Of a stretch of 64,000 bases of DNA, positions 25,154-52,597 are shown piece after piece. The stretch comes from Amoebophrya sp. A120. Lineage: Eukaryota; Protista; Dinoflagellata. The stretch is from positions 14,942,142 through 15,006,141 of the forward strand of contig CAJINV010000001.1 in the NCBI GenBank assembly GCA_905178155.1, read 5' to 3'. Each line of letters starts with the position of its first letter. Within the stretch, counting starts at the first letter, position 1. Below the pieces are notes generated by a model that was not told the DNA's origin, did not search any database, and saw only the letters and a program-made list of their open reading frames with translations. Made by a program: the position numbers and the translations under genes.

Positions 25154-26285
25154 CTAGGACTCGACTTTTTTGGCCGACCATTCCAGCAGCTCACCGATCT
25201 CTGTCGCCGTGAGGCCAGCACGATCCTTGACGAAGCAGGTGTCAAGCCCAGCTTTTTCACCCTTCTTTATCTCGTCGCGATCATCCTCGACAAGCATGCA
25301 GGGTCGCCCGTTCGCCAGTTTCAAACACACTTCCGCTTTCGAACTCCACTTCGCGCAGTCTTTCCGGTCGATATGCGTCTCCACCTCTGGTGCGAACTTA
25401 GTCCTGACAAATAGTTTTTCTTGTTTGGTTGATATGGTGATAGAAAGTAATTAAGCGTGCACAATTCGGTCTCATGTCCAACCAAAAAAAATTCACGACT
25501 GAGAGGAAGACTACTACTAACTACTGGTAGCTTTAGGTTTAGCAGAGACAAAAATCAGCGCAATAAAATCGTGCTTACTGCATTGCATTGAGGTCGTATT
25601 CTCTGGCATCCTGCATGCTCGTGTAGTCGTCGATTCTGGCGTACACATCGTCAAAGTGCGGCAACAACTTCGTTTTCTCCAAAATCAGTCACTATCCACA
25701 GCAACTGTGCCTGGGTTTGGATGAATGCCAATGCGTCGAGCAAATCTAAATCATCAATCTGGGTGATGCAAAAATAAACTGCCACGTGGCAGATACCCGC
25801 ACTCCTTCAAACCCAGACGCATTTGCATTTGATAATCGTATTGGCGCAACTAAACCCTTGGAACAGACGACCAGGGAACACCCGTTCGTTCGTAGTTTCT
25901 TGAAGGTCTTCTCCATCTCTGCAATCTGTTCCTTCCCGCCGAGACAATGCTCGTAGAATTTGCCTGTCGGAGGGAGTTAGCACAACATAGAAAGGGAATT
26001 TGGATTGCTAGTACGAGTTTGAAAACCTCCAATGGTAACGACAAGATCAAGGGTCGGGCGAGTGGTACCTTTCATTTCCTCGTCCGCCTCGAAGCACTTC
26101 TGGATCTGCCCTCTCTCTGAGAGCGCGTAGGGCCCATCAAGAAAGTTCCCCCGTCCGAGCGTGACAAAACCGGCGAGGCACTTGAAGACGTGACACTGGG
26201 AAATGGTCTGATCAAAGTCAAAAACTATTACTTTCGTCTTCGGAACCTGCCCGCCCCGTGGCGTACCTTTCCGCGAGCCTGGCAT
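25154..26285 (-). CDS. HAD-superfamily phosphatase-like protein, 4 exons
   Basis: Motif I VIVFDFDQT, motif II VVCS and motif IV LVEDD. GT-AG introns 25964-26068 and 25404-25578, plus a 147-nt non-canonical intron around 25690-25836 joining GLVAPIR|LILEKTK. Confidence 0.85.
25693..25834. mobile_element. Degenerate introner/MITE, TIR family A, in the HAD gene
   Basis: Ends TATCAAATGCAAATGCGTCTGGGTTTGAAG and TATCCACAGCAACTGTGCCTGGGTTTGGATG are inverted and match the TIR of the 45647 and 51134 elements. Flanks are ACGAT/GTGAC (eroded TSD). In-frame stop inside. Confidence 0.75.
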
Positions 26286-27169
26286 GATGGTTCGAGCAGA
26301 ATAGCCGCCTTTGCGGAATTGAGAGAAGAGGCAAGCTCAAATTGTGTGGCGGCCACGTAGATGCTGTGCAAAAACACCTAAGGCCCGAGTGAAAGCGTTA
26401 TTAGGATTCAAGCAGTGTCATCGCGGTTGTCGTGTGCTTTGTCTGAAGTGAGTCCCACAAGCTCAAATAACTGCTTTATTCAGAAGACAAATTTGCAGTG
26501 CAATATCGCAGAGTAACACACCGTGGCCGTGCCTGTTTTCGGTATAATCTTTTTTGTTGCAGAACCACTGCCGCTTCAGTATACCTGGATATCAAGCTCG
26601 CGCCGCTAGTGCTAAGGCTAGGATTTCTCGCTTACGAAAGCAATTTGCACAAGTTTCAGACAGACCGCATTTTTGGAATCGGTTTGAAGCAGAGAGGAAG
26701 ACCATTTCGGAACTGCGATGCGTTTTTTCAGGAGTTACCGCTTCACGACTCTGAGCCGACTTCCGATTGACAAGAGATTTCTGCGATGGACAAAACCCCC
26801 AATATTATACACTGTACCAGTAGATCCCATACGAACACAAGTTCAGTGAATCGACAGAGCCACCCAGGGCATGAAAACACGCCAACAGCAGCACTCACAT
26901 TTTGTTTTTAGTTGGAGTCTAAGTACGCAGCACTCTGGTTTTGTGTCAACATGGTCAGGTTTGGTAGAAGTTCAGTATGAATCCATGATTCCCTTCAAAT
27001 CGGAAAGGCTTGCCTTCAAACCCGGTAACATCACTCTTATCCCACAAAGGAACAATTCGTCGGCTTCGTATTGTGTATTAAAATTCCACACGCATAACTA
27101 CCGAAGATTGGACAACATTCCGAAACAACACGAAGGTTCTCATCAGGACAGATGATGAATCAGACAAGC

Positions 27170-29121
27170 TTATTCTTCCTCTTCCTCCTCTTCGGCGTCA
27201 CCCATCTCGGCCATGAGCTTGGTGCGAGCGGTGGCCTATTACAGTGAAAAGTGCCCCCCACCCCTGAAATTGTAGCAAGGATTTGTGATGCAAAGTTTCC
27301 AAATGAAAACTTTTTGTCATGCATGAAAGGAGTATGAACCTTTCTGAGGCAAGGTCTAGGCGTGTGTCGCAGCGCTTGCATGACAAGCGCCGCTTTTGCT
27401 GGGATCTTTTGCAATACAAATTTTTGCTATTCACGATCGGAAATCTGTGATGCTGATAGATGCAGTAGGGCGAATGTTTCATTTGGAAAGGTTTGCAATA
27501 CAAATGCTCCGAACTTCGGGGGTGGGGGCATTTTTCCTCGCGATATGGCCAGCTTCTGCTTGACGCGGTCCTTGCGCTGGGCGTTGGACCGCTTGATGCA
27601 GCGGGTGTAGCTAGTTCCCTTGGAGGTTTCGATGGTGTTTCCCTTGCGCGTGTTGGTGATACCCGCGCTCTCCTTCTTCACGAACTTCGGGTCCTCGCGA
27701 ATCTTGGTGTGGCACTCCTTGTACAAGTCCTCCAGGCCGTCCGCCTCAATGTCGTTCTCAATGAACGCGGAAAAAGCGACCTTGTAACCTGTTTTTAGTG
27801 TTTGGAAAGGGCGTGTTTTCGCTGGTGAGTCGGAAAATCCGTGTGTATACACTATCTTTATGTTCTTGCACTCTCTCATCTCCAATAGCAAAAGTTCTCA
27901 TTCTCTTCCAAACAACTCATGCAAAAAAAAACCGAGACACATCTGTTGACGTGAAATGTCGAAAAGAAGTATTAAATCGAGAAGAGTTAATCGCAAAATC
28001 AAGTACGTTCCGGATCCTCCTCGGACAGCATCTCCATGTACTCGGAGACGTGGTTGCCCAAGATGCGCTCCAAGTGCGCCGGGGCATCGTACTCGTAGTC
28101 CTGACCCTTCTCTTCCGGCTCCTTGTAGCCCGGGAACTTGGAAACGGAGTGGGGCACGTGCAGGCCACCGTCGACGGCGCCCTTCAGCATACCGAACACG
28201 CGGGAACCTGGAATTGGTTTTTTGAGGAACATAAATTCTTGTCCTACCGTCAGCACGCAGGAAACAGGAACAATTCCTAAACGAAACTACCGACAAGTCT
28301 AGCGATATTCTTTTCCTAAACCGCGGATTCGGATTGGTGCAAGAAATACAAATATGCACCACGCCGTCACCTACGCTGTAAAGAAAAAAAAAATATGTAC
28401 CCGGAATGGTGCGGATGAGGCCGACATCCAGGATGCACTTGAACGGGCGGCGCTCGTTGTCTTCCTCTTCGACGTGGAATTCCTCGGCGGTGCACTCTTC
28501 AACACCCTCAATGGAGTCTGCCAGTCCGACGATATCCAGGGCACGGCGAGCGATCAACAGACCTGATATGGTTTTAGTGTTTTTTTACCAGACTATCATG
28601 TGTTCCGCATTGGTATCTGCGGCCGCGACGATAGCACAGAAAGAACCTTCAGTGCACCCCATAAGTAACCATGAAACTAATTCACAAGAGCCACACTGCT
28701 CTGGCCAGTATCCGAACTCACTCTCTTCCATGCAACAGAGCCACTACCTAAACTGCTTCCGATTCTAAATTTCCTAGATTAGGTAAAAACACAAAAATGT
28801 CAAGCGAAGTTGTATACCGGTAGCGTAGCCGGCGGCGTAGTTAGTGTGGCCGCACGGGACGCCGTACTTGCCGAGTTCGGAAGACATAGCCTGGCACAAA
28901 ACCTTGTCACCCTGAATGGTGGCGTAGACAATCTGGCAGATCATCTTCTTGTTGGTGATGCGGCACACCAAGCGGTACTTCGGGGTGTTGTACTTGTTTT
29001 TGTCCTGAGCGACCATCTTGCGACGGGCATGGTAGTCGGTCTTACCCTCGCGGCGGCGGCGGTACTTGGTCTGCAAGCGCTTGTAGTAAGCCTTGTTCTT
29101 CTGCACCTTCACGAACGGCAT
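27170..29121 (-). CDS. RPL5: 60S ribosomal protein L5 (uL18), 5 exons
   Basis: [47 protein letters not shown] introns 28563-28817, 28208-28400 and 27789-28006; a fourth intron 27236-27549 (GC-AG compatible, TIR element) restores the tail [23 protein letters not shown]. Confidence 0.97.
27237..27545. mobile_element. Introner/MITE, TIR family C, in RPL5
   Basis: 309 bp with TAT...ATA ends, an imperfect ~70-bp inverted repeat (GAAAA.TGCCCCCACCCC...TTTCCAAATGAAA) and a perfect 5-bp duplication tggcc at 27232-27236 and 27546-27550. Confidence 0.9.
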
Positions 29122-29287
29122 CTTGTTTTGTGAGTGTTGTTTCTACCAAATGTTGACCCAAAAGTTCTCGTACAAAAGAACTCCACTAACAAATGTCCCT
29201 GTGTAAGCGAGTAGGAAGACGATACGTTCGGCGGTGACAGATACATTTTGACAAAAGGTGCAATTTTTTAGGTTTGTGTATTATCAG

Positions 29288-29550
29288 GCGATCGGAAACG
29301 TTTCAGAAAAGTTGCGCGAGATCGTAGCAATTTAGGATCCATTTAATAGAAGCGGAGCGTCGTCTTGCACCCGACGCAAGAGTGAACATTTAGATCTTAG
29401 CGGATTTGGAATTTGGATCGCTTTGCGTCGCATCGCTCAGTGAGCTGCCTGTCGCGATTTGGATTTGATCAAATCTAATTCTTCTCGTGCATAGGACGGA
29501 TCTTCGCTTCACCTACTCTCGTGATCTTGTGGTGCTGGCGGAACGATCAA
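29288..29550. promoter_or_regulatory. GATC-rich cluster upstream of RPL5 (candidate cis-regulatory region)
   Basis: 9 GATC sites counted by hand in about 260 bp, versus about 1 expected; GGATTT variants also present. Confidence 0.45.
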
Positions 29551-32076
29551 CAGTTTCAATTTTATTCGCTCACAATCATCCATTTTCACGAACTCACGAT
29601 GACACGGAGGAAGGTTATCCTGATTGACACCATAAGGTATCAATTCGTATTGACTTTGACGGTCACCGAATTAGAACATTTGGCTTGTCGCCGGTGCGGA
29701 CAAAGAGATCGGTTCACGAGAGAGTTCCTCCAATTTCATTCTGATGACCTTATCCTTTTGTTCACAATCCCAACCGACGACGGGACGCGAACCTTCACGA
29801 CTAGCAGATACATCCTTTTCCACCGACGAAAAATGTGCCGGACGAACAAATTGGATCCTGTGCGCCCCTGCCTCAAGGGATGCGCTGAATCGCGCAGCGA
29901 TGAAGCCGCTGAAAGGGCGGCATTTTTCACGTCAAATCATATATTTGCCCAAAGCACTGGGATAAAGTCTTGCTCAAAGATACGAAACCGGGATATCAAA
30001 CGACACCACAGGGCTTATGAGTCCTGTTCAAAAACGAAAAAAGACCTAAATCATAGAAAAATATTAGTAAAAGCCCATTTACAACAACAAAAATAGACCC
30101 TTCTTGAGAGCATCTAGTAAATCAAATATTCCTCCTGGTTCAGAACTACTTCAGTTGTGTTTTACCAGTTTTCGCGCACCGGCTATACTTAAGCGAAGTC
30201 TGTGGTTAGCTAGCGTTTTTACTTTGTGTCATTTGATTTGCCTTTCTAAGTACGACTGACTAATCACATCTTTCTACCGTCCTTCGTCCATCATGGAACT
30301 CGTTTTGTGGAGAATCGCTCTACTGCACCGTCGCGGCTCTGCACATATCGAAGCTCAGCTGGTTAGGTTTAGAATTTTGTGCTAAATTCTCCTGTGTTAG
30401 CGTGCGATTTTCCTTAATTTTTGCTGTGTGCGATGCATTTGACGATCTTAGTCTAGTAGAAGAAGTGGTCGTAGTGTACGCAAAAACAAGCCGCATTTTC
30501 AAGATTGTTCGATTTACAGTTTACAAAGAAAGCTGCAAAATAGACATTGCGCTCTCACATACTCGTGTACGTTCTATCTGGTTACAACTGCATTCTGCTT
30601 TTCGAGATTATGGACTTGGGTCGAGAGATTATGGACTTGTATTACAGTCAGGAGCAAAAGATCGAAAGAACTTCACACAACAAGTCTAAATTGCAATCAC
30701 CCCGCCCTTCTATTTTTTCGTCCACGACCAAGAGTAGTTTTAGGGCTGCTATTCATCATAACTTCGCACCCAAAGCTTTTTCCCAGTACTCTATATTTCC
30801 CGCACAGCAAAAGACTAGTGTTGACATTCTAGTATTCATATTTTAAACTTTAGGACTTGTCTGCCTACAACTATAGCCAGCCAAGCCCGAAGCGACAAGC
30901 CACCCACAGCACTCCTCTCGGCTCTGCTTCGGTTGTATTTGTAGTTGTCGTTCCGTCTAAATACTCCACCGGCTGTTCCCGGACACGCCGCTGCGTGACG
31001 TGCTACAAATTAATCATTGCACTCACAGCGCAACGGGCGTGTCTGAACTGAGTAAACAAAAGGCAAATTGACATGAGCTGCACACGGGGGGGACATGCCA
31101 ACTCGCCAGTTCACTTGGAAGTAATATTGGTTCTAGGATAGTATCAAAAGTTCGAATGCAGCCAGGCAGTATGGCAAAGTCCAGCAGAGGGGTGGTGCGT
31201 CTTTCGCTTTAAAAGTGCTCAGTCATGTTCTTCTGGAGTAGAGGGGTCCAAATGAATCTAGCTCGCGAAACAGCGATCTAAATTAATACTTAAAGAGATG
31301 CAAGAGTAGCAGTTTCTGTGATAGAATTTGAAATTTCTATCGAGCATTTTTTCGGATACAAGTCAAATGATGTACGTACCTCTCGCTCGTGTTGAGTTTG
31401 ATTCTCCATTCTAGAGCATTAGTAGGAGTGGAAGAAGCAAACAGGATTTACATTTCAGTCTTTGTACGTTCTGGATACAAAATGTGTGATCCATTTTCAA
31501 CATGTAGGTAGGAATCATTTGAAAAGCATTTGAGTATCTCCATCAAACGCAACAAAACCTCGCTGCACACGGGGCCGAGGTGGCAGAGCGCTGTCTGATG
31601 GTACTTGCCGGGGGTAAGAAAGGTAAGACTTTCGGGGTGGGTATAGATGAGACGAAGCCCCACATTTGCACAAAACTAGGTCCTTTTTATTTGCGGGTAG
31701 AGGAAGTTGCATTATTGCTCCACATTGCTGTCTTTGCCATAAGTTACGAGCATAACTTTTGGAAAGGGCAGCATGAGCTCTTCTACCAGCCGGGGGGGAA
31801 GTATTCAAAAAAAAAACACCTGCCGAATCTGGTACTTGTCATTTACGTATTTGCCATTCCGAGCACGGAAGTAGTGCTTGTAGCCATGTTCAAATTTCTA
31901 AATTAGAGCCGCCTTATTCCAATGAGTCAAAATCTTTCAAACATGCTGTTGCTGCAGTGGTCAACGCCATCGCGGATGTACTGACGCTGATTCTGCGGAA
32001 ACATTCACCTAGCAGAAGTACTGGAATTGTCAACATTTCATCATGCAGCAAATTATCGAAAAGCTTAAGCGATCTT

Positions 32077-35000
32077 TTAGCCCGCCTCGGTTCCCTCGGA
32101 GCCGTTGGATACGGTGCTGGCCTTTTTGTTGTTATCGGCGAAGCCGAACTCTCCCTCACGCAGCGCAAACAGAATGTGCCGTCCATATGGTAACCGCTCG
32201 AGCGTTTCAATGTACTGTCGCATCAGCTCCACAATCTCGTCGCGGACCTGGCCCTCCGCGACCTGCATCAACTTCTGGACCACATAGTTTCCATACTTAT
32301 CCTTCATCATCGTCACCGCTGGTGGCACCGCGTTGGCGCGCATCAACGGCGTCGTCGGATCTTCATCGCCGTCTTCCTTCAGCTGTTCAGGGTTATGTTG
32401 AGTTTATTGTCACTCTGTGTTCACTGCTCCAGTTAGCCAGGATTAAAGTGATCATACTATACAGGGAGTTGCTAGTTGAGCCTTCACAGTTATAAAAACT
32501 GCAACGACGAGCCGCGTACAGGATGTTTGAATGCGAAAAACTGTCATACACAAAAAAACAAGAAGATTCTGTCAGTTCTTCCTCGCAAATAAACCAATAC
32601 CGGCTTTCCGATCGAGACTGTGACGAAATTCTGTCGGTCCTTTCGATTGGCCTGTTGGATACTCTTCTCCACCACGTTGGATGCGAACTTGTGGCAACTC
32701 ATGGCCGCCATGTTCTTGTTCACGATCGCGAACACGCGGTCCCGGTCCTCCTGCCTTCCGTACTCCACCATATTCTGGATCACATAATTGCCATACGCGT
32801 CGTGGATGAATACGCTCAGATTGTTGGCGTGAATCTCGTCGTAGATTTTTGCCACCTGCTCCGGGTCGCAATACTCGATGATCCGCTGCAATACGCGCGA
32901 GCCGTAGCAGTGCGTCGCCATCCGCGGGACGTGGCCCCGGAACGCGTCAATGATGAATTGCACCTGTGGTTGTACATGTAATCGAGTATTGATGTGAGGG
33001 ATCATCAGAGTCATCCCTTTCTAACGCCACGATGTTTCATCTCAACTTATCGGCTGGATACAACTCGTATTAATTGGGGTGCTGAAAAAAAGGAATGAAG
33101 GGAATTCATGAACAAACCTTCCCGGTGGGCATCCGCTCGAAGAATTTTTGCAGAACGTGATTTCCGTTCTGGTCCTCGACGGCATCCAGCACCTGGCCGG
33201 ACATATCCTTGGCGAGCTCCAGCTGCAAATCCACGTTTAACACCTCCAGAATGCGCTGCAGAGTGCGGCACCCCGTCTCGTGGACAGCGATATCGAAGAC
33301 CTGTGTTTTAATCGGAGAACAGACTAATGGAAATAGAACTACCCGGATCGGTTTTTGCACAATAAACTTTCTTGAAAAGGGTGGAAGTCGAAGTGTAAAT
33401 GGTAGCGGTAACACAACCAACAAATACTTTTCCGTTGACATTCGCTCTCGCATGACCAAAAAGCGGCGAAATCACGGATAATACCTTTGTCTTCATGGCG
33501 TTAATCAACATGGTTTTCTGTTCCAGGGGGGACATACCGCAGCTGGCGGAACTCTCGAACAAACTCCGCACGATGTTATGCGCGAATACGTCGTTGCACA
33601 AGGAGACCTGTTGTTATGCGTTTGACAACCTTGAGTCGCAAGTCATTCCGATCAAAAGCAGCTTGTTTGCATCATCAGCAAATTCAACGACTACAGCTTG
33701 CTTGAAAGAGAGGTGAAGGTGCGCCACGCAAAAAGTTGCAACATAGGAAAAATTTTACGATGTTGTTCGCGAAAATCTCGAGCGCCGCACGACGCAACTC
33801 CACAGAGGTGTCATCGTTTTCCATGGCACGCACCACGGCCTCGTGCGCGTCCGGGCACTTGGAGAATTCCATCAGCTCTTCGCCGCTGCCCTTCTGGACA
33901 ATGTGCGAGAAATCGAAGGTCCCCTTGTCCCGCCACTCTTCCAGTTCCTGCAGAGGAGTTCACAGACAAGCTCACATTCATTCTATCTTAATTACTTGCC
34001 TTTCCAAGGGCAGAAAAAAGTCTCTTTATTCAATTTTGTACACCTCATTTTTCCGACGAAAGAAAGACGAAAAACTGTCTTCGGGTCTACTTGCGAAAGG
34101 AACGGCTTTTGTACCTTGGAAGCGGGCTGACCTCGGCGGCGAGACGCTTCGGCCTCTTCCAACTTCTGCAGGTGCTTGCCCGGTTCTGGCTTGGAATTGT
34201 TGTTGCCCGGTCTGGAAGGACCGCCAATCATGGTACTCTTGCCTTTCTTGGCCGCATTACCTGTGAAAATAGAAGTTTCGCCCAATTTTCTTCATGACGC
34301 AACGGAAACGAACTGCCTCACGAGGAGGCGCTGCGTACATCTGTGGTGAACAACGCTGGTTGCTGGCGCTGATGCTTTATCAGCTCCTGTGCAACTTATC
34401 CGCGGCGTATATGCAAATGAAAAATCGCGCACGTAAAAATCATGGCTATCTGCGGGATTTTCCTACCTCAACCTCAAACTCTAACTTATCGATCATGCAG
34501 TCTATGCGAAGTAAAAAACTTCTCGTATCTATACTGTTCTTCCCCTTGCCTTTGCCCTTTCCCTTCCCGTCGCTGGACGTGGAGTTGTACTTGCGATCAC
34601 CGGACGATCCGTCGGTGTACCCGCTCTGCGGCGACATGCGGGGATTTTTGCCCTTCCCCTTACCTTTTCCAGCGCCCTTGCTGTTGCCGCCCGAGCTGTT
34701 GCCCTTGCTGATCCGCTTGCTGGGGTGGTAATTGTCGTTGTAGTTATTCCCATTGTCCTTCGAAAACTGGCTGTACTCGGTGAACCCTCGACCGTTCTGC
34801 GGACCCCCGCGCGGACCACCACCGTCGCCACCGTCCATGAAATTGTTGCTGTTGTAACTGGTCATGCCGCCCGAGGTGGTGTTGGTGGTGGACAAACTGC
34901 CCCGCTGCTGCAGCTGCGACTCGTAGTACGCGAGATCCAGCTGGCGGTTGTTGTAGTTGTCCATCTGATCGCGGTAGTTCGCCGGCGAGGCGTTGAAGTT

Positions 35001-35738
35001 GCCCGGATACCCGCGCGGCGTGGACCCGTTCTGGCTCGGGTTCCCGAACTCGTAGCCGGAATCCAACCGCATCGCGTTGTTGTACCCGCGCTGGTTGTTG
35101 CGCTGGTGGGCCAGCAGCTGCAATGCCTGCTCCGCGGCCGCCGCGGTCTCGCGGTTCATCTGGTTTTCGTAGGCCGGGTTGCGAAAGCCCTGGTTCACCG
35201 TGGTGCTCATCATGTTATTGCGATTTCCACCCGGTCCGCCACCCCCACCACCCATCAGGTTGTTCGGGTTCGGCCCGTTGTTGTTACCGCCGTTCGCGAC
35301 CGCCCACTGCGCGCGCAACGTCATCTCGTCGACCAGCCGCTGCTGGTCGCTGTAGTTGCTGCGGTCGCGGACCAGCTGCTGCCGCATCAGGTTGTTGGCG
35401 TTGTTCCCCAAGTCGAGATTATTACTGTTGTTCCCGTAATTCGGGGGCATCCCGTTACCGTAGTCCTGCTTGGTCATCATGTAGTCAGACAGACTGTACT
35501 GCTGGTCCTGGAAGTTATTGTGCACCATGTTATTGTTGATGTCACGGGGACCTCCATTGTTGTTGCCGTTTCCCGGTGGACCACCGTTGTTGCCGTTTCC
35601 GTTCCGCATGATGCCGTTCCGCTCACCCGAGCGCTGGTGCGGGACCCGCATGATGCGACCCTCCGGCGCAAACGTGGTACGGATGGAGCGCTGCTCCACG
35701 ACCGGACCGCCGTTGTTGTAGCCGCGCTGTTGCTGCAT
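32077..35738 (-). CDS. Pumilio/PUF RNA-binding protein with N/G/Q-rich low-complexity N-terminus, 7 exons
   Basis: PUF repeats HETGCRTLQR, DQNGNHVLQK, HCYGSRVLQR, DAYGNYVIQ, HKFASNVVEK, DKYGNYVVQK, LPYGRHIL. GT-AG introns 34261-34534, 33948-34131, 33608-33758, 33301-33484, 32964-33117 and 32383-32600. Confidence 0.93.
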
Positions 35739-41280: not shown

Positions 41281-42355
41281 TTATCCTCGGCGCAGACCGA
41301 GCAAAAAAGTGCCCGCAAAGGCTCCCGTAGCGGTATTCTTAGCGGCGGCACCTATGGTAGTAAAAGCAGACGCTAGTGTCTTTGTACTGAGAATTTCCGG
41401 CAAGAACACTTGGAATTCAAGTATAGGTATGGGCTGCTCAATCATGCTGCAGTCGCTGTGTCTACATACATACGCAAAAAAAAGATTAATCAATACCTTC
41501 GAGCTCGTCATTTGCAAGAACATCTAACACCTTCTGAAGCCAGACGCCAGCATCCTTCTCGTCGAGCTTTCCGTCGCCGTTTGTGTCCAGGGCCTTCATC
41601 ACGTCATTTTCTACCTGAAAGAATTTTGTGCGTAGTTGCAACATGCGTGGACCCAAGAATCCTCGGAGGTAACGCTAATCATACATGAACACGCGAAGGA
41701 AGCGCCACAAAATGGCTCACGCATTGTCTACCTTTTTCCAGTTAATTGTGACGTAGCCGTAGCTCGCGGCGACCTGGAATAGACAGTAAAGGGAGCCCAC
41801 ACCGACCGCAACCGCTTTTCCGATTTTTTTGCACGCGTAGCCTGCCGCGAGTCCTGATGCGCCACCGAAGGTGAGACCTGTGATTCTATGTTTCGTGTAC
41901 AAGAAACGGAAAAAGATACTGGAGTGCTCTTTCGCTTGTAGACTGCTGTACACGATCAAGCAAAATAATGGCGATAGTGAAACTTCATCTGTACTAGCGC
42001 AGCACAATTTCTTCTACCTCCCGTCAGTGGCTTCATGGTGTCTGGCGTAATCCAATCTGGTTTTCCGATCATGTCCTGAATTTTCGCAAGATCGAAGCTG
42101 GACTTGTCCTCGCAAAATACTGTCTGTCTTCTTCTGATGTAGCTCGACTGCGACGCTGTGTACCTGCGATTTGGAAGTCGTTTGCTAACGAAATTCAACA
42201 TAGCAAGGATGGGGAGCAAAGGACAATGCAAAGGCATACTCAATGCGCGAGCGTGACGTTGACAAAATCCTTACTATCGATACTTACCCAGCGAAACCGC
42301 ATCCGGCCGCCAATCCCACCCGGCTTGGCGTGGCAAATCTCGTAAGGAAGGACAT
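41281..42355 (-). CDS. FUN14-family mitochondrial outer membrane protein with EF-hand-like loop, 5 exons
   Basis: GGASGLAAGYACKKIGKAVAVGVG...GYVTINWKKVE, DTNGDGKLDEKD, GAFAGTFLLG. Introns 42164-42287, 41878-42017, 41615-41731 and 41352-41496 (the last acceptor is less certain). Confidence 0.88.
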
Positions 42356-43090
42356 TCTTGTAGGGTCACTTAGAAAAGGGAGGACGAAACAAAGTCTCGA
42401 CGAAAGGCTTTAGAAGACGGCGCAGATTCACACCGGAATGGAAAGGAAGCAAGGTAGACCTCGTTCAAAACGAGGGGTAATCAAACAACTAGAAGTTTTT
42501 TTTGAGTAGAAGAAAATTCCTCGAATGAAGATCGGCGTGGAGATCTTCTTCTCCGCCCTCGTGGGCCCTCATCAGTTTGCACCTACTCACAGGTTCCAGT
42601 TTCCCGTCCGCTCCTATGGCTATGCCCTCACAGCTCGAACACTATACCATAAAATGAGCTACCCCAGATGCAGCGGCACTATAGGTGGCTTCTGTAGTAC
42701 CTCTTAGGTTTTTTCGTACGTACATTCACTGTGCTTGTTCTGGATAAAAAAGGTTTGGAAAAAAATGGCTCTTGTACTTTTAGATGAGTGTGAAACGACG
42801 CATTCTTCGAATGCGATTTTTTTTTTTTTGGCATTGGCTTCGGGTTCGGCCCCTAGTTGTCCGACTACTGCTGCACTATGCCGCCGCAGGCGGATACGAG
42901 ACGTCGTGCGAACCTCCCCCAAACAAATTCCTCCCGCCGCCGATTCCTGGGGTTGCTAGGCTTCCGTAGTTCATAGGTTGCGTCTCCGTGTTGCCTTCCG
43001 AAATAGCTGCGACGGCTGCAAGCGAAGGAGGTTTTTTGTATTTTTTTTTCAACTACCTTTGATTTTGAAGCTCACAATAAATACGCCGGC

Positions 43091-43908
43091 TCAGAGATTA
43101 CTTGGCGTCAGAGTACAACACATGGCTGCATCTTCGTATGCATCATGTAAAGCAATGTTTCTATTCCTACCATCTCCGAGCAGATTCTTCCCGGGCTTCC
43201 CCGCGGCGAGCAGTTCCGGAAAGCCGGTCCCCGCACCTCCCTGCCGAATGTCCTCACACTGGCTCCAGATCACGTGAATGCAGTAGAGCTGGAAAATGAA
43301 CAGTGTGAAGGAAAAAAGAATCACGAAGCTCCGCGTCACCCCGCACGCGAAGGCTGCACCCTGCTGCTTCACCGATTCCGGCATCATGCTGCAGGCGTCG
43401 TTGATGAAGAGATAGTAGATGACGTACCCAAAATCCATCAGAAACGAGAGGGTCACATAGTACAGGTAGAGTCGCAGGTGCGGCTCCTGGCGGTAATACA
43501 CACCATACAGTGCGGCGCAAATGAAGGGAAGCCCGAAAAGGCAGTACCTGGAAAGAAAAATGGAATGGTGATGATCTTGCCGTATGCCAAACAATTTGGA
43601 GAAATCATTAATCATAGCATGAAGCGACACGAGCTGGATATATATCCTCTTTATGCTTTTGGTTCTGTGCAAACATGATGATACGCTGCGTTGAAGACTT
43701 GATGCCCGATGTCGTCGCCGAACCCGACAGTGGGGATTTTTAGAATGATTGAAGAGACCGCAGCGGCAATGTAAAAGACGTTCATCAGCAAGTTTCCAAA
43801 CAGAATCAGCTTGGCTCCGGTGGAAAGCTGGCAGCCGCAGCAGAACTGCGTCATGGGCCGACATGAGCAGCACCAGGCCAGCAGCCCGCCCTTCCGTGCG
43901 GGCGGCAT
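43091..43908 (-). CDS. Four-TM membrane protein with Cys-rich N-terminus, 2 exons
   Basis: FCCGCQLSTG followed by four hydrophobic segments; GT-AG intron 43548-43684 joins VFNAA|YCLFG in frame. Confidence 0.8.
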
Positions 43909-44566
43909 GATGGTGCTCGCTGCTTCTGAAAGGTCAAGCTTTTAGCGCAGCGAAAATTGTGACGAGTGTGTGTGTGGCTGAAGAACAAGAAACTGTAGGC
44001 AAATTGTACTCCGTTTTAGATCTCTTGTGGAGGAGCGAGGTGCCACGGTGTTGCTTCATGCGTAAAGAAGCAAGCGTTTGTTACGGTGTGATCTCAGAGT
44101 ACACTCTTCTCGTCTTCGGATGAGTTTCTCAATATCACTCACTTACCCGTATATCTGGCCCGGTATTTGAACACAACAGAACACGGCACCATTTAGACCC
44201 GGTAAAGCCGCGGTCAAAGAAACGAGCTGCAAGCTGTGAGTGAGAGTACGTCTGCGTCTGCGTGCAGCTAGTGTGACAAAAGAGACAAGGTTCAAATGCG
44301 GCAGAAATTCCAGAGAATCTCAATCTTTATGTTCCAAAGTGCGACTCGATCGCGCGGACTTGTCATTTCTTCAAGACAGGGGTAAAGACATGTACCTACC
44401 TGCACCCGAAGACAATGACGTAAGGAAAGGGAAAGATTATGCTGCGAGTGGGAATGGGGTGAATAAATTCAGTGGGCCTTACTACAAAAACTTGCGAAGC
44501 GTTTATTACATTCGATCCTCACAGACATGTGGTGGATCTTTTCCTGATATGAAAAGCCTCCCCGCT

Positions 44567-46672
44567 TTACGACGTCGTTTTCGCGACTCCGAAGGTACTT
44601 GACTCCAACACGTTCGGCGCGAACGCCTGCCCCGACGCCACTGTGCGGCGCAGTAGTCTTGATAGCGTGTTCAGCTTACTCATTTCGCCGAGCCTCCGCT
44701 CCCGCGCCCAGTTGTTGCTAGTCCGGGCCACTTGCGCAGCCTTTTCAATTTCCGCCTCGTAAAAGGCCATCATGTTTTCCTCCTTCTTGACGTCTTCCAT
44801 TTTGTGCGTGAAAATCCTCTGTGGGCCGAACTTCCAGGGCTGCAGAAACGTTTTTCGGACCTTGTAGCGGTCCCCGAGGATATCTTTGGCTTCGGCCAGT
44901 TGGGTTTTGGACAGCAGCTGCAGGTGCTTCGACGGCTGGTATCCGTGTCCGTGTGGGTCGTCCATGGCCAGGAAGGGCTTTACCGCCCCGCGCATGAACT
45001 TCGCGGTTTTGTTTAGGTCCTTCACCTCCGGAATCTTCTGGTTCTGCAGCCGGTACGTTGTACTGCTATCCTTCGAAAGGAGGACGGCGGTCTGACTCTG
45101 CGGCACCTGTTGAGAGGGGAAGGAGAGAAATAGTAGATGTAGAAGATGGGGCCAAGCTTACAATACACACGAAAAGGCGCGGCGCGCGACCCTGCTACAA
45201 GGTGGCGCAAAGGATGAGGGCGGCGGGCGGCAGCGGACGCGGACGCTCGCTGCCTCCCCCGCGGCGTTTTGGAAATAAAAACGCAGCGGAGGAGGAATCG
45301 AACCCCTGGGCGTCACCGCCCCCCGCGGGTTGAAGCCGCGTCCGAGCACCAGCCCGGCTCACCACTGCCCTGAGCGGATATACAACCTAAGGAAAAGCCT
45401 TCACCCGGGTAGCCAGAATAGCTACTGCTAAAAACGGCATTCGGGCAAAAAAAGCGCACCATATCTTTTTTTGAGGGTATTTATTCGTAAAAAAGAAAAA
45501 AAAACCTACAAGTAGATGTACCTTCTCCCCGCCAATGACGCCTACCGTCTCGTTCGTTTCAAAATGGCCATAGGGGTTCATGGCCACTTGCCTTTCCGGG
45601 TGCGTCCGCTCCGCTAGGTTTATTGGCCCGCCGATCTTATCCTTCGTATCAAGTGTAAAAATGTCTGGGTCTGGAAGGTGTGATGCGCATTTCAGAACAC
45701 AGAAAAATCTCTCATGCATAGGCAGCAAAAGTTGCCCATTTTCTGTCACCAAAGTCAGGGATTTGTCATGCAGATTCGGCATTGCGAACGCTTCTCGAAA
45801 CCTGTGATGCTAGAGCTTCCATGCCAGACCTTCTGTGTCATGCAAAAGCAGCATGATTCTTCCAGACCCAGACATTTTTACATTTGATACTTCGCCGTCT
45901 GCTTCCATTTCCGCCCTGAGGTGCGGTTCGCTTCCTGCTGCGAGACAAAGCTGTCGGTGGGAAAGCCGTGGACGTCGAACGGGAGATCCAGCCCCGGGGT
46001 CGCGCTGGAGGAAGCGGAAGATCCCAGCACCAGGCTCGACGCGCTGCCGCCAGAGGGGGACGGCGTCTGGCGCTTCGTGGGGGTCTCAATTTGCGAGGAT
46101 GCGGTAGGGGAAACGATCGGGGAGGGCGCAGTAGTCGCGGTTTTAGCGGACGTAGGGGAGGGGGCGGCACCTGAGAAAATGTTGGAAAGTAAAAATTAAG
46201 AGCGACTTTTCAACTCATGGGATCATGATCAGCAAAACTCACAAACTATTTTTTCGGAAAAAAGTAAGTACATTCATCCTTGCTGGGTATAGGATGGCAG
46301 TACAAGACAGAAGTGATCAAGAAGTTGGAGTTTTACTACACGCTAATCAATACCTTTTGCTTGGTCCTTGCTGTCGTCCTCGTCCTCGGCTTTGGGCTCG
46401 ACTTTCTTCCCCTTTTTTTCCCAAATATCGTCCGCCCGGGTTAGCACTGCAAACCTCTCGGCCCGCTGTTGCAGGAAGGCTTCCACGTCCCGCTGTCCGC
46501 GTTTCTTAAACTGGTTGGTCTGCTCTTTTAGCCATCGGTCGCTACGCTGGCCGTACATGGAACGGTACTTGCCGCACCGGAATTCCCAGTTCTTGAACTG
46601 CTTTCCAGCCAACATTTGGCCTTCGCGCAGCTGGACCTCCGGCCCGGACTCGACATGTTGTCCGCGACCCAT
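44567..46672 (-). CDS. Hypothetical protein, at least 4 exons; host of tRNA-Sec and an introner
   Basis: ATG at 46672 (MGRGQHV). GT-AG intron 46171-46353, 248-nt non-canonical intron around 45643-45890 and GT-AG intron 45107-45521 give one continuous frame to the stop at 44567. Confidence 0.8.
45277..45281 (-). terminator. Pol III oligo-T terminator of tRNA-Sec
   Basis: TTTTT immediately after the discriminator base on the minus strand. Confidence 0.7.
45282..45368 (-). tRNA. tRNA-Sec: tRNA-Sec (selenocysteine, anticodon UCA)
   Basis: 87-nt 9/4 cloverleaf: acceptor GCAGTGGTG/CTCCGCTGC, 6-bp D stem CCGGGC-TGGT-GCTCGG, anticodon arm CGCGG-CT TCA AC-CCGCG, long variable arm GGGCG-GTGA-CGCCC, 4-bp T stem GGGG-TTCGATT-CCTC, discriminator G. 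Confidence 0.96.
45647..45889. mobile_element. Introner/MITE, TIR family A
   Basis: 243 bp; 31-bp TIR TATCAA(A/G)TGTAAAAATGTCTGGGTCTGGAAG with 1 mismatch; 5-bp duplication cttcg at 45642-45646 and 45890-45894. Removal restores QTAK|DKIGG. Confidence 0.93.
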
Positions 46673-47339
46673 TTTTGTGAGGGTGTGATACAGGAGATGA
46701 GCTGTGTCCGGTAACACTTATGGGGGAGTCAAGACAAAGTGTTGAAAGAGTAAGTGAAAGAAAAATAGTAACGTCAAGAAAAAGAAACAGTCAATGGAAA
46801 GAGTCAAAAATGAGCTGGGGGTCTTGATGAAGATCCTGTGGGGGTGTCTTGAAAGCAACTTACTTGATTACGAATGTTGCGCGCAACGACAGCTTCTGGA
46901 CGGACCGAGGTTAGTACTCCTTCAGATTTGGTGTTTTCTGTACGAGCTATTAGCACTAGAGCACAACGAAAGCAGAATCGAAGAACGATCCACGAACCAG
47001 TGAAAACAGGGACGATGAGGAGAACGAATTGAACGAAAACCAGGGACGACAAGAAGCATGAACGGGTAAGAATGAACAGAACCGACAATTCTCATCGAAT
47101 GCGGTACGAGAGATGAACAAGAGCACCAGAGTCTACCATCTTTTTTTCTTTCCGTGGTTGACGAGTTGTGAAATCAATGTCTTCATTCTCTAGTTGGTGG
47201 TTGCCTCATTCTGCACAAGTTCCAAGTCGGTAGTTTACACAAACATTTTTTACGTATGACAATCGGTTTCATCTGATACACTCTGTAACAACAACTTGAG
47301 CAAAAAAATATTTCTTTAGTCTTTACGTATATCAACTGC

Positions 47340-50300
47340 TTACCCTGCGGTGGTATCATCGTGAAAGTTCTGTGCGAAGAATCCGCCAGACCGGAGCAGC
47401 TCCTGTGGCGTTCCGAACTCCGCCGCGCGCCCGTTTTGCATGACCAAGACTTTGTCACATCGTGTCAAAGTCGCCAGTCGGTGCGCAATGAGAAACACCG
47501 TGTGATTCCTCAAAGTCGTCCTCAGCAATGATGTGATGCGCTGGTCCGTGGCCGCGTCCAGGTTTGAGGACGGCTCGTCCAGTAACACGATCTGTGCCTC
47601 GTCTTTTCGCAAGACCATCCGCGCGAACGCGATCAGTTGTGCCTCTCCCGCCGATAAGTTTGCGCCGCCGGCCTCGATTCTTGTGTCAAGCGTGATCGTG
47701 TGGGAATCTTTTTTGGCACCAGCTTTCGTCGGAGACTGCGAAGTGGAAGTAAATACAGGAGGATTTAGATTCATTTCATCTGTTCTATTTCCAGTAGCTG
47801 TAGTCTGTAGTCCATCATCATCTTCCAAATCGACGTCGACAAACACCAAAGAGAAGGCGGTCTCAATCTCCTCGGGCAGAAACTCGTCGAAGGGATCGAG
47901 GTTTTCCCGCACCGTACCGTCCATGAGGAAAGGTTTTTGCGGCACCATGAAAAGATTCCGCCTCAAGTGGTACAGCGGGAGGTGCTTTGTGTCATACTCG
48001 CCGATCTTTATCGTCCCCGTTTCGACGTTGGCAAAGCGAAACAGCATGGCACACAAACTTGACTTCCCGGCACCGGTTGGCCCGCAAACCCCAATGTGTT
48101 CCCCCTGCGTGATCTTGAGATTAAAATCTGAAATCGCGAGCGGAAAGTTCTCCGAGTAGCGCAACGAGCAGTTCTGGAAACGGATTTTCGCAGATTTCAT
48201 CTTCTTGCCTTGCTTGATGTGTGCAGCCGCAGTGCCATCGGTGTCTTCCGCAACATGATCCAACCGTGGCAACAGCGAGGGAACATTGAGCACGTTTTTT
48301 GCAGTCTGGCTAATAGTGCTCTCCTTACTCGGTGAGCGTTGTTCGAAAGAATCTGCCGTGATTGCGACGGGTGGCCCACCGGATTGTTCGGTGTAGGAAA
48401 ATTGGTAAGATCGGCGTCTTGTCAGCTTCGAATCTGTGAGACTCGATGTTGATGTCGTACTGCTGCTTCTTGCAACTACGTTATTTCCCTTTTGAAGATG
48501 ATTCTTCGCCGCGTAGGTGAGCATGAATTTCTCGTGCTGTCTCCGAAACTCGGCCAGGGGCTCTTCTTGCGGCGTCTCTTGAAGGCGGAAAACGCGCTCG
48601 CACTGCATCAATCCCAGGGAGAGAATGAAGTAGAACTGCGCGATCAAATTGAACATGAAGGGCATGATGAAGCAGTAGCCCACAATCAACCCGATGATCG
48701 GGCGCGGGATCGATTCCCTGGCGTTGTAAAGGAACAAAACCAGCGAGGCGGCGACGATGGCAGACAGGAAGTAGCAGCACAGATTCGAGAAGATGGTGAT
48801 TTCCTGAGCGGCGTACCAGCACCGCAGGTACGTGTTCATTCGGTCGCAGTGCTTGTCCAGAAAGTATTTTTCCAGTTTCATAATCCGCGAGAGCGACGCC
48901 CCGTCGATGGCCTCACTCACGTTGGCGACCACGGGGGACAACGCGAGGGAGGCCAGCCGCTTCGTGTCCCGAATTCCGTACAACACGAGCTGGCAGAGCT
49001 TCAAGTACACCAGCGCGACGATGACAATCACGATCGAGGTAAACGGGACGACAAAAATTTGCAGTCCGAGGATCGTCACGCCCAGTCCGCAAAACTGCAT
49101 CCACACTTCGGTGATGGTGGAAAATTGCACATCTACTCCGCTCAAGTCGGTGGATAGCGGGCCGTACACCTTCCCACTACTCGCTTCGTCAAAAAAGAGG
49201 AGTGGTGCGCCGAAAACGCGGATCACAGAGAGATCGTGCAAAGCTCGCCCCGCTCGGGCAGCACCGTGGTAGTACAGCAGGCCGAAGCAGCTGGACAGAA
49301 TCGCGAACGCCAACGCACAGCCGAAGTACAGGACAAACCACGTGCTCTCAAATGTCTCCAAGTTTCGGTCGTTCCCCTTGCGGAGCCACTCCGCGAGAGC
49401 CAGTTCGCTTGAGGCCAGCACGCCGTAGGTGGTGAGCCAGGAAAAAACCATCAGCAACAAGTTGGTCGTGCCGAAAAGGAGAAAGTACTCGCGAATGTAT
49501 TTGCGCCCGGTGCCCGTATTTTTCTGTTCTTCTTTCAGGAATTTTCGCGAATACTCGTCTTTTTCAAGAACAGAAGATTGCTCTTGGCCCACCTCCTGTG
49601 TCCTTGTTTTGCTTCCCCTGGTTGTACTGTTAAGCGATGTTGCGCCGTCCAGTGACACTACGGTGCCGACGGTTTCGTCGCTCTCCTTGGACACACGACT
49701 GGTATCTCTGATCAAGCTCGGATCGAGCAAGTCTGGCAGAGAATTCTTGTTTTTCGTTCTGGCGAGTCCAAGCGTTTTAGTCACATCTGGTGCCGCGCCG
49801 TCTTCAAGTTGTTGTATGTTAGTACCGGGCACGACGTCTACTTCTTCTTGCAATTCTATGTCCGTCGGGCCCGTTGCTGTCGATGATTCGGGCAGCGCAG
49901 TTTTTAAAACTCCTTTGTCTAGTTGCAAGACAAAGTCGGTCTGGGACAGCAGCGCGGCTTGGTTGAAAGCGAGAAACACCAGCTTTCCGTCCTTGGCGTA
50001 ATGGCGCAAATTGTCAAAAATTGCAACTCCAGTCGTGTGGTCGACCGCCGCTAACGGGTCGTCTGCGACCAGAATGTCCGGGTCGCCGGCCCACGCGCGC
50101 GCCAAATTCAGCCGAGCCTGTTGCCCGCCCGAAAGCGTTACGCCGCCCTGGCCGATCTCCGTGTAGAGCGTCAGCTCCTGCTGCGGTTGGGCGGATTCGT
50201 TCTTGGTTTCGCGAGAATGAGCACTGTCATCCTTCGTGATTGGCGATACACTTGGATGCGCGGCAATCGATGTAGAAGTTCTCGTATCTTCCGTGCCCTG

Positions 50301-52597
50301 ATCTGCGAAAGAAGTCAACAGCCTTGCACGGATCAACGCCTCTTGGATTTGCGCCAATGACAAGTGTTTTCGGCCCATCCGCACATTCTCTTCGATCGTT
50401 CCGGTGACGACAAAAGCCCGCTGCGGACAGTAACCGACGTTACACGTCGAAAACTTAATTTTTCCGCTGGTTGGGCACTGCTCGCCGAGCCAGGTCAACA
50501 GCAAAACCGTCTTTCCCGAACCCACAGCGCCGACTACGCCGATCAGTTTGGATTGCGGCGGCAGGGTGACGGAAGCATCAGTCAGCGCAACAACCATCGT
50601 CGTCTCCACTCCTGATGTGCTGACCAGTGTTTCGTCTTTTTTCGCAACCGCCGATGAGGTTATCGTTTCTTTCTTTGCATCAGATGAATTTTTGTTTTGC
50701 GCGGCTAAATCCCCGGACTTTGTTGTGCTTTGCCGCTGCAACTTCACTTCCACATCGGTCATCGCGCAGGCCTCCGTCGTAGCTGTTCCTTCGTCCATTA
50801 ATTTTCTGTATTCCTCCCGCTCTGGCAGGTTCAAATACTTCTCCAAACGCTGCAACGTTTGCACAAAGACCACCATGTTCACGACATTTATGGGAATCAG
50901 GACCATGGCGCCCCGCATCCCCTGCAGCACCGCGAGCACCGGAAACACGAGCTCCACGGTCAAGGGCTCGGCTCCGTCGTGCCAGTAGAGATACGTTGTG
51001 AGGGCGAACACCGCCGCGAGGACGGGCAGACACCGGCCTAAGTTACTCCCGAGCACCTTGTACTGCTGCCACAGTTCGATGGCGCGCGTTTCTTTGTTCC
51101 GAAACTCCTGCAATTTGTGGAAATACCTACCCTTATCAAATGCAAAAATGTCTGGGTCTGGAAGAGTCGGGACTTGTCATGCACATTTTGCATGACCCGT
51201 GAGGTCTGTGATGCTGGTGCTAGCATCACAGATTTTTTGAGAGCTTCTTGATGCTGATTACGCATGAGAGATGCCCTCTCCGCGTGCCAAGAACTGACTC
51301 CTCTTGCTGCTCATGCAACACAGATATTTCTAGAATCCGCAGACAGCATTACAAGTTCCACTCTTCCAGACCCAGACATTTTTGCAATCCATAACCCTCC
51401 CAGCACGCGTATTTCACGCCCCGGATGTTCGCCAGCGCCTCCTATGGAAGCGTCAGGATTGAAATCGACAAAGTTGAAATAATTCCTCATGCAAAAATTG
51501 CAAGGCATGAAGTGCCTCTCTTGCAGGCATGGCAAGCGAGGCCGACTGCCAGCCTGTTTGGGGTCTGCGATAGAGCTGCTAAAGTAGCATGACAAAAGAC
51601 GCCTTCTGTCCCTAAACAGCATAACAAACAGGATTTAGACGGTGCCGAAATTTGTCATGCACCGCTGAGAAATGGGGCTTTTAACTGGTATCGATTTTAT
51701 GCATTACAAGTTATTTCAACTTTGACGATTTCAATCCTGACGCTTCCATACCTCCCGTAGGCACTGCAGTCTCCCGCCGGCGTGCACCACGGCCTGCGCC
51801 TCGTATTTTCGCGAGGTGATCAAACGATGGAAGGACACCCCGATGCCGCAAAGCACGAACAGGACGGTCCACACGCCGACGATGTCAAGGAGAACCATCA
51901 GGTAGGCTGACCCGACGGTCAGGGAGACGAAACTGCTCGGGATCCAGCCGAAGACAAAGCCGACGAGATTTGCCTTGCCCAAAATTTCCACAGAAATCAG
52001 CATCTGCGCATCCGCGGCTTTCGGCGCGGGCGTTGCGGCGGGTGGATCAGGTTTATTTTTGCCTTCGTTTTTGGTACCTGATGTTGCAGTTGTAGCAGCG
52101 GGAGCACTGCCAGTATGATGATCCTGCACGCGCTGCATCTTCCACACGATCAACGCAGAAAGCATGCCCTGGAGTTTCGTCCAGAATTTCGCGACCAGCA
52201 CATCGTTTCCGTGCAGCCAGCAGCATCCCTCAAAAAGGATGGGGCCGACAATCGCGAGTAGTATCAGTTCCAGTCTCGGACTCTCCGCATTCATCTCTTT
52301 CAACACAAATCGCACGGCCTCTGGTCGGGCGATCACCATCACCAATCCCTGCATCGTGCCCCAGAATAGGCCGCGAATCACCAGCCCGCGGGTCATGCGC
52401 CAAACCGTCTTCGGTAAGTTTCCCCCGCATTCCTTCAGAACCGGTAGCGTTTCCCGAAGAAGCTTTTCACTGTCTACATCCAGAAGATGGTTCACATCGG
52501 GGAAGTCGAGACTGCCCTCCTTGTAGTTCTTCCAGATCACCGGCGCGACGTCGGTCTTGAAGAGCACATCGAAAATGCGCGAACAAAAAGGAGCCAT
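47340..52597 (-). CDS. ABC transporter, ABCC/MRP-like (TMD-NBD-TMD-NBD), 3 exons
   Basis: NBD1 GAVGSGKT / LSGGQ / ILVADDPL; NBD2 GPTGAGKS / LSAGE / IVLLDEP / IAHRL. Removing two TIR introns gives CLREALANIRGVKYACWEGRYFHKLQEFRNKE, matching the ABCC TMD1 IR.IK.YAWE region. Confidence 0.93.
51134..51393. mobile_element. Introner/MITE, TIR family A, in the ABC transporter
   Basis: 260 bp; TIR TATCAAATGCAAAAATGTCTGGGTCTGGAAGAGT versus TATGGATTGCAAAAATGTCTGGGTCTGGAAGAGT; 5-bp duplication accct at 51129-51133 and 51394-51398. Confidence 0.93.
51443..51750. mobile_element. Introner/MITE, TIR family B, in the ABC transporter
   Basis: 308 bp; 40-bp TIR TATGGAAGCGTCAGGATTGAAATCG(A/T)CAAAGTTGAAATAA; 5-bp duplication cctcc at 51438-51442 and 51751-51755; compatible with a GT-AG intron 51439-51751. 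Confidence 0.93.

Follow-up and report, generated by a model that had tools for sequence, protein, structure and literature searches.

How genes can be read when transposon-like DNA lies within their codons, and by what rule such DNA leaves the transcript, is the question raised by a stretch of the Amoebophrya sp. A120 genome (contig CAJINV010000001.1; 64,000 nucleotides, called the window here for its whole length). Five short elements with terminal inverted repeats (TIRs), named E1 to E5, interrupt coding sequence in the window. We consider it highly probable that they are short TIR transposons with a 5-bp duplication, that they are removed from RNA together with five flanking bases, likely under the guidance of their paired ends, and that they were likely spread by one cut-and-paste transposase. 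The elements and their duplications, the latter read on the minus strand, are listed below.

25693 to 25834: E1, 142 bp, a decayed member of the family 0 type; inner TIR AAAAATGTCTGGGTCTGGAAG; arms 75% complementary
25688 to 25692, minus strand: downstream duplication copy of E1, GTGAC; intronic positions 1 and 2 do not match the mRNA (ACGAC)
25835 to 25839, minus strand: upstream duplication copy of E1, ACGAT; intronic position 5 does not match the mRNA
27237 to 27545: E2, 309 bp, second TIR family; GGCCA at 27232 to 27236 and 27546 to 27550
45647 to 45889: E3, 243 bp, same TIR as E1 and E4; CGAAG at 45642 to 45646 and 45890 to 45894
51134 to 51393: E4, 260 bp, in the orientation opposite to E3; AGGGT at 51129 to 51133 and 51394 to 51398
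51443 to 51750: E5, 308 bp, third TIR family; GGAGG at 51438 to 51442 and 51751 to 51755

Five insertions with TAT...ATA ends

A direct check of the window bore out the preliminary description of these insertions. Their coordinates, TAT starts, ATA ends and inverted repeats are as claimed, the duplications GGCCA, CGAAG, AGGGT and GGAGG are perfect, and the fifth pair (ACGAT/GTGAC, at E1) is eroded to 2 of 5 like bases. Comparison of the TIRs also gave the three families that had been named, with one TIR common to E1, E3 and E4 and two different ones in E2 and E5. E3 and E4, in opposite orientations, are 68% alike over 257 nt. The best four inverted repeats in the window (within 3 kb) have 55, 35, 32 and 36 nt and belong to E5, E4, E3 and E1, and the arm of E2 is gapped (65 nt, 78%). 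Every position was scanned for stretches of 60 to 1199 nt in which 16 or more of the 25 end bases are complementary. The scan returned four TAT...ATA matches with a 5-bp duplication, which are E2, E3, E4 and E5, and no additional TAT...ATA element with a duplication in the window; five other matches with 4- to 5-bp duplications start inside a TIR or lie at the 16/25 floor.

The introners of A120 are described as starting with TAT, seven variable bases and at least three A, with direct repeats of 3 to 5 nt, in the passages of Farhat 2021 used here (PMC7789003). Such a start is found at both ends of E2, E3 and E4 and at one end of E1; the ends of E5, with arms of 55 nt, have the TAT and lack an A-run at TIR positions 11 to 15. 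Relatives in another assembly are 88 to 92% alike for E2 to E5, and for E1 the matches are to its ends. The left end of E1 (window 25693 to 25728) begins TATCCACAG and resembles family 9 of that assembly, while the inner arm and right end are of family 0, so that E1 may be a hybrid or may merely be decayed.

Removal from RNA and presence in DNA

Four contig runs (X3 to X6, from two samples of one study) were taken as RNA since GT-AG introns are absent from them. Joints across E1 and E2 are among those listed: at E1 the joint 25688>25836 skips 147 nt (142 plus 5) and at E2 the joint 27231>27546 skips 314 nt (309 plus 5), in each case in 4 of 4 runs and in contigs that lack the GT-AG introns as well. 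For E3 to E5, removal comes from the arithmetic of the pieces. Record 10 of X3 leaves 401 nt (281 plus 120) between listed pieces, which fits the loss of E3 and 5 nt, and record 11 fits the loss of E4 and of E5 with 5 nt each, leaving at E5 44 nt, that is, a 49-nt exon minus 5. Each of the five elements is absent from the RNA contigs together with exactly 5 nt. The exact removal from RNA that had been proposed is supported by these contigs.

Run X1 behaves as DNA, with an even depth of about 43 across genes, introns and spacers. Its unique contigs extend 24 to 27 nt into E3, E4 and E5, and therefore these three sites are filled in X1 DNA. Summed X1 depth in the bins of these elements is 56,000 to 175,000, a rough sign of very many copies. 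The evidence for presence in DNA covers E3, E4 and E5, and the RNA evidence is drawn from the contigs of a single study. A 2026 run under the same species label (X12) gave raw RNA reads that matched TIR pieces (45858 to 45889 and 51345 to 51393) and not the genes; these 141 reads come mostly from one locus and probably stem from a different strain or from contamination by a relative with the E3/E4 TIR family.

The 5-bp rule at other loci

A scan with the E3/E4 TIR fetched at least 141 loci from one other assembly (488 kb, GC content 49%), all chosen for holding an element. Among 138 copies of one family, anchored on the inner TIR only, 126 have both TAT and ATA, and the duplication is a perfect 5 bp in 114, matches at 4 of 5 bases in 13 and at 3 of 5 in 6, and is poorer in 5. 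An exact 4-bp duplication occurs in 2 of the 138 and an exact 6-bp duplication in none. Of 147 ends that the search pattern did not force, 136 start with TAT. A search free of both end and length constraints gave 478 inverted repeats with a direct repeat of at least 4, from which 183 were dropped for poor terminal pairing. Among the 295 left, 201 are TAT...ATA, and all but one of these (200/201) have a 5-bp duplication; the remaining 94 are mostly apparent pairings between neighbouring elements or starts inside a TIR. A TAT-anchored catalogue, in which pairing favoured perfect duplications, holds 349 pairs in at least eight families with a median length of 260 bp: 259 perfect, 43 with 4/5, 13 with 3/5 and 34 with fewer, and no exact 6-bp duplication (0/349). 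Elements fill about one-quarter of these loci, which were selected for holding one. A general rule of 5 bp and TAT...ATA at high copy number, as first suggested from the window, is well borne out by these counts. The suggestion that it might be unreported did not survive: TAT starts and a 5-bp repeat are in Farhat 2021 (PMC7789003), and a row of Gozashti 2025 reads '5-bp TSD, TA/TA Termini' (TSD, target site duplication; PMC12130899).

Empty sites were found as well. Five of 313 copies have a colinear paralogous gene copy with a single 5-mer; two further matches are self-overlaps. Essential genes are interrupted in mid-domain: one element (locus L060) splits a conserved motif of RPB1, and removal of the element plus 5 restores GTIA/AQSVGEPATQMTLNTF; another (L011) splits an SNF2 helicase domain at Pfam positions 225/228. 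Frames are stop-free in 60 of 69 cases on removal of the element plus 5, against 29 to 51 for plus 0, 3, 4 or 6, a control that is partly circular as the frames were chosen with the plus-5 model. Loci L005 to L007 hold tandem paralogous genes, 73 to 94% alike, which carry different elements at different sites, and hence these insertions postdate the duplication of the genes and the set offers natural empty sites.

Position of the cut and splice signals

Because their duplications are perfect, the junction is ambiguous in E2 to E5. The eroded pair of E1 narrows it: the mRNA reads ACGAC, a mix of ACGAT and GTGAC, and therefore allows only registers 2, 3 or 4 across the duplication. The element edges (registers 0 and 5) and register 1 are excluded, so that the splice falls within the duplication, 1 to 3 nt before TAT, and the possible introns are GA-GT, AT-TG or TT-GA. 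A TAG one base past the element end, which would be the acceptor of register 1, is unused; its use would give a stop. The simplest history would be an original ACGAC followed by three transitions, all on the intronic side. The preliminary description, in which the element and one duplication copy are removed, thus holds for E2 to E5 and needs amendment for E1, whose mRNA keeps parts of both copies. A universal intron start at a G in the second base of the duplication, which would suit the four perfect copies of the window, was rejected: E1 excludes that register, and at other loci the second base is a G in 34% of 92 copies, a share like that in the flanks.

These 92 are the perfect copies that a coding model placed confidently in frame, and all equivalent registers were counted for each. 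GT-AG is possible in 6 of them (3 of 74 with an earlier coding model), and GT/GC/GA-AG or AT-AC is possible in 16. As many as 42 cannot end in AG, and for 11 both a G start and an AG end are impossible. The base composition of the duplications is like that of the flanks, and the ends have no preferred dinucleotide. In the window one element of five (E5) can be read as GT-AG and one of five as GC-AG; E1, E3 and E4 have no GT/GC-AG register such as defines a major-class (U2) spliceosomal intron. Copies of family 0 lie in both orientations, 6 with the gene and 9 against it. The RNA also shows nine GT-AG introns, all of the ordinary GTA...CAG/TAG kind and lacking the TGTNWTGC motif described below. 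E1 to E5 are all predicted to fold into hairpins that pair their ends (z of -2.6 to -12.4, 30 shuffles).

A shared internal motif and the putative transposase

TCATGCA and its relatives stood out in the window elements, where TGTNWTGC occurs six times in E2, four in E3, five in E4 and four in E5, with no exact copy in E1; the motif was then tested on the other loci. The test set was 298 elements with at least 4/5 of the duplication and under 600 bp, leaving out 51 of the 349. All 298 contain TGTNWTGC, 81 of them belonging to six families that the window does not have, and its density is 15.6 per kb inside elements versus 0.54 outside. It first appears 30 to 50 nt from the ends, faces inward at about 2:1 and is present in all 15 clusters tested, and main-family interiors rarely align over 60 nt, except those of families 3, 6 and 7 with one another. 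In family 0, column identity is 87% in the motif versus 65% in the other interior, and within the TIR it is 95 to 96% at positions 11 to 31 and about 79% at positions 4 to 10. An outer TAT, a loose spacer, a conserved inner TIR and subterminal repeats would fit the layout of a transposase cleavage and binding site.

The elements have the marks of miniature inverted-repeat transposable elements (MITEs), namely TIRs, a duplication of fixed length, empty sites and no coding capacity, which agrees with their earlier description as nonautonomous TIR transposons. That one type of transposase moved them all, also claimed at first, is favored indirectly by a motif common to families that do not align, and the transposase itself was not found. 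The suggested look at long copies for a DDE transposase was likewise fruitless: none was found in the long copies among the 488 kb of loci, nor was an autonomous partner with the same ends found there. The TIR patterns had no match in viral contigs or prokaryote genomes. Unpaired TIR ends, considered as edges of long autonomous copies, are mostly locus or contig ends or have decayed partners, and in L058 a pair 6197 bp long brings together, by chance, internal ends that lie around other elements.

Long copies of family 0, of 631 to 1255 bp, lie at L006:4001-5255, L060:5024-5995 and L039:3862-4492, and the L006 copy appears to hold an element of the E5 family, so that nesting seems to occur. 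A copy of 1104 bp at L015:505-1608 has E5-type ends, a perfect duplication and about 800 bp of extra GC-rich repeated interior, which is also present at L072:5910-6784 (88% over 543 nt) and gave no Pfam match in the three frames tested.

Host genes and the effect of retention

All five elements sit in minus-strand genes, as follows.

25157 to 26336, minus strand: host gene of E1; 251-amino-acid (aa) stop-free spliced frame, two GT-AG introns, DxDxT motif
27163 to 28563 (RNA-covered part), minus strand: host gene of E2, ribosomal protein L5 (RPL5); Pfam PF17144 and PF14204, two GT-AG introns
44570 to 46717, minus strand: host gene of E3; 434-aa stop-free spliced frame
47343 to 52666, minus strand: host gene of E4 and E5, ABC transporter; Pfam PF00005 and PF00664, 1582-aa stop-free spliced frame

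Retention would shorten the frame from 251 to 161 aa at E1 and from 434 to 275 aa at E3, and would split the 1582-aa ABC transporter frame at E4 and E5. E2 lies in the C-terminal tail of RPL5, and its retention would swap the tail (241 versus 222 aa in the modelled part) without truncation. Of the gene labels first given, those of RPL5 and the ABC transporter are backed by Pfam matches. The label HAD, given to the host of E1, goes back to a DxDxT motif, and the three exons of this gene, searched singly, gave no Pfam match; the host gene of E3 gave none either. Within the GT-AG intron at 45107 to 45521, the host gene of E3 carries a selenocysteine tRNA gene (anticodon TCA; 45283 to 45366), which is also encoded on the minus strand. 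Across the window (1 to 64000), every reading frame longer than 1300 nt is on the minus strand, like the one-directional gene blocks reported for Amoebophrya.

Proposed mechanism and alternatives

In the mechanism that we favor, a DDE transposase would cut at TAT and insert with a 5-nt stagger, and it would bind the inner TIR (positions 11 to 31) and the repeated TGTNWTGC. That the elements spread through a single cut-and-paste transposase is likely; as a first guess, held with no more than even confidence, this enzyme would be integrase-like, on the IS3EU/GingerRoot/Ginger side. In the transcript the two TIRs would pair, in either orientation, and bring together the positions of both duplication copies. 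The RNA would then be cut 1 to 3 nt before TAT and 2 to 4 nt after ATA and rejoined, which would restore the codon sequence from before the insertion. Removal is likely guided by paired ends and not by GT/AG signals, and we are moderately confident that TIR pairing defines the ends. For the catalyst, a cut-and-join route without the spliceosome, of the kind suggested for the nonconventional introns of euglenids, is a tentative choice that falls just short of an even bet.

Several observations weigh against this mechanism. The cut position comes from one locus, E1, and the coding frames at other loci are model calls without an RNA check. Mismatches within duplications are synonymous in 16 of 24 cases, where 8.5 are expected if only the free intronic copy mutates (P of 0.001) and 12.3 with silent exonic change (P of 0.08), and from this excess the cut may slide; of the eight amino-acid-changing cases, two are in recognisable genes (SNF2 and FadB-like), and neither fixed a register. 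TIR mismatches on the sense strand show no excess of G.U over A.C (72 versus 80; 112 versus 133), and the spacer at TIR positions 4 to 10 is nearly without covariation between the ends (5.05 versus 4.90 of 7), so that pairing of the TIRs in RNA is predicted by folding and selection on an RNA hairpin is unsupported by these two results. E1 is removed although it lacks the exact motif and its arms are 75% complementary, so that removal requires neither the motif nor a perfectly paired stem. Finally, the long copies at L015 (1104 bp) and L060 (972 bp) gave no transposase-sized frame or Pfam match, and no transposase was found in A120 according to the passages of Farhat 2021 used here (PMC7789003).

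A divergent, U1-independent spliceosome with loose choice of sites within the duplication would differ from this mechanism in the catalyst only, and we regard it as credible if somewhat doubtful. GT-AG introns are spliced in the same transcripts as the elements, most spliceosome proteins and U2, U4 and U6 were found in A120 and U1 was not (Farhat 2021, PMC7789003), and a review part relates that the U2 spliceosome removes the non-canonical introns of Fritillaria (PMC11282704). Whichever way an element lies, the A-run at TIR positions 11 to 15 becomes a run of U close to the 3' end, but neither family 5 nor the E5 family has this A-run. Each of the five window elements can start with G in some register that the RNA allows, yet no single register gives G in all five, because E1 excludes register 1. 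The synonymous excess would fit sliding spliceosomal sites, whereas the 11 of 92 coding copies with no possible G start and no possible AG end would not. Of a different kind is the proposal that the common ends arose from several unrelated transposases or a copy-paste route, through selection by RNA removal for TAT...ATA and 5 bp, which we consider improbable. Farhat's failure to find a transposase in A120 (PMC7789003) speaks for it, as does the placement of A120 introners in several classes in the rows of Gozashti 2025 used here, where a Mutator-like A120 family with 8- to 9-bp duplications and GG/CC ends is also listed as intron (PMC12130899). Private changes are depleted in TAT (4 versus 12.8), in the inner TIR (35 versus 89) and in the motif (52 versus 85), which could be host selection, but for TAT and the inner TIR this depletion is skewed by the way in which copies were collected, and the "private" changes include those of unsampled active parents. 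The presence of one internal motif in each of the 15 clusters tested fits a DNA-binding protein common to the families; E1, which lacks the motif, is still removed.

Two further proposals would do without RNA removal altogether. The elements could be cut from DNA in the expressing life stage; TIRs and a duplication with exact removal resemble the internal eliminated sequences of ciliates, and X1 and the RNA runs are different samples. The X1 contigs, however, pass the duplication and end 24 to 27 nt inside E3, E4 and E5, and they run unbroken over the element edge, the point at which an empty allele would part from them (contigs drop rare variants, which limits this point), and another assembly also has hundreds of filled sites, which leaves DNA elimination very improbable. 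Alternatively, transcripts could keep the elements and reverse transcriptase could skip the hairpin between direct repeats during library making. All of the RNA data are presumably cDNA, and a hairpin with a direct repeat is a known setting for this artefact, as a source used in part relates (PMC13149111). But E1 forms the weakest hairpin and has only 2 nt of homology that could be used, yet it gives one exact joint in 4 of 4 runs, and no contig covers its interior in any of the four. If the elements stayed in the transcripts, the frame of the E1 gene would be shortened, that of the ABC transporter split, and RPB1 and the SNF2 helicase disrupted; we hold this artefact to be extremely improbable.

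Relation to known systems

The window elements resemble the A120 introners of Farhat 2021 in non-canonical ends, a length of about 240 nt, many families and co-oriented genes, and the GC content of the window (51.3%) matches the A120 AT content of 48.8% (PMC7789003). They have the TIR start, the 3- to 5-nt direct repeat, the removal from RNA with mostly non-canonical ends and the genomic repetition of that class, and most likely they are among its 29,850 catalogued copies. The introners in those passages have inverted repeats of 8 to 20 nt and variable direct repeats, with a 5-bp example in the legend of Fig. S19, whereas here the arms are 30 to 65 nt and the duplication is a uniform 5 bp with ends at TAT/ATA. 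The same passages left the introner border open (PMC7789003); here one border is narrowed to three registers, and an internal motif is shared. In Gozashti 2025, most of the A120 family rows examined read 'TIR DNA, Unknown'; family 38 is 'Ginger; 5-bp TSD, TA/TA Termini', with frames similar to Copia/Gypsy integrase regions and without Ginger termini, and family 19 has a TSD of 5 by manual inspection (PMC12130899). Automated TSD calls for other families range from 2 to 6, and the rule is not stated for all families in the rows examined.

Among transposons, IS3EU/GingerRoot elements share TA..TA termini and TIRs longer than 30 bp, and fungal IS3EU ends in TAYGG, as the E5 family does (PMC10045372, PMC12730594). 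Their duplication is usually 6 bp, which was found in none of 138 and none of 349 copies here. Ginger1 and Ginger2 have termini of the TG..CA type, unlike the TAT...ATA ends here. Their duplication is 4 or 5 bp (PMC10045372, PMC12730594), and the 5-bp duplication is shared by hAT5 (PMC12730594, citing Repbase Reports). No hAT transposase was found among the element copies in the studied loci. Repeated subterminal motifs, such as occur here, are typical of hAT elements, and hAT TIRs are usually shorter than these. The first comparison with hAT5 and IS3EU thus survives as a set of resemblances, in TA..TA ends and, for hAT5, in the 5 bp.

The nearest working analogue for removal is the euglenid nonconventional intron. 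Euglenid nonconventional and Fritillaria non-canonical introns have a MITE-like origin, end pairing, TSD-like junction repeats and non-canonical ends, according to the parts of a review used here (PMC11282704). In euglenids these introns pair through a CAG/CTG consensus and are released as circles, and Fritillaria introns favor AG-AC/AG-AT (PMC11282704), whereas no end dinucleotide is preferred here. Our search of the Amoebophrya introner literature found no paper on the splicing mechanism, and a search for the motif gave unrelated primer matches only.

Implications

The class of element is already known. The E1 register, the 6 of 92 GT-AG count and the shared motif were not found in the parts of the literature searched; Farhat figures S19 to S25 or Roy et al. 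2023 (Curr Biol) may show a register or the motif. Copies with eroded duplications, of which 56 of 349 have 3 or 4 of 5 matches, could reveal the cut position from ordinary RNA-seq, and the motif common to all families offers bait for the missing transposase. A broader reading, rather unlikely as it stands, is that all TAT...ATA/5-bp families, despite their unrelated interiors, form one system, with one undescribed integrase-like transposase lineage that reads TGTNWTGC and a non-spliceosomal ruler that cuts at a fixed 1 to 3 bases outside the hairpin irrespective of sequence; if that were true, a transposon could insert anywhere in the coding sequence of any gene at no cost. What is at stake for Amoebophrya is the removal of tens of thousands of introns without GT-AG ends or detectable U1. 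If this removal is sequence-independent and non-spliceosomal, it would be the second such route of nuclear mRNA splicing after that of the euglenids.

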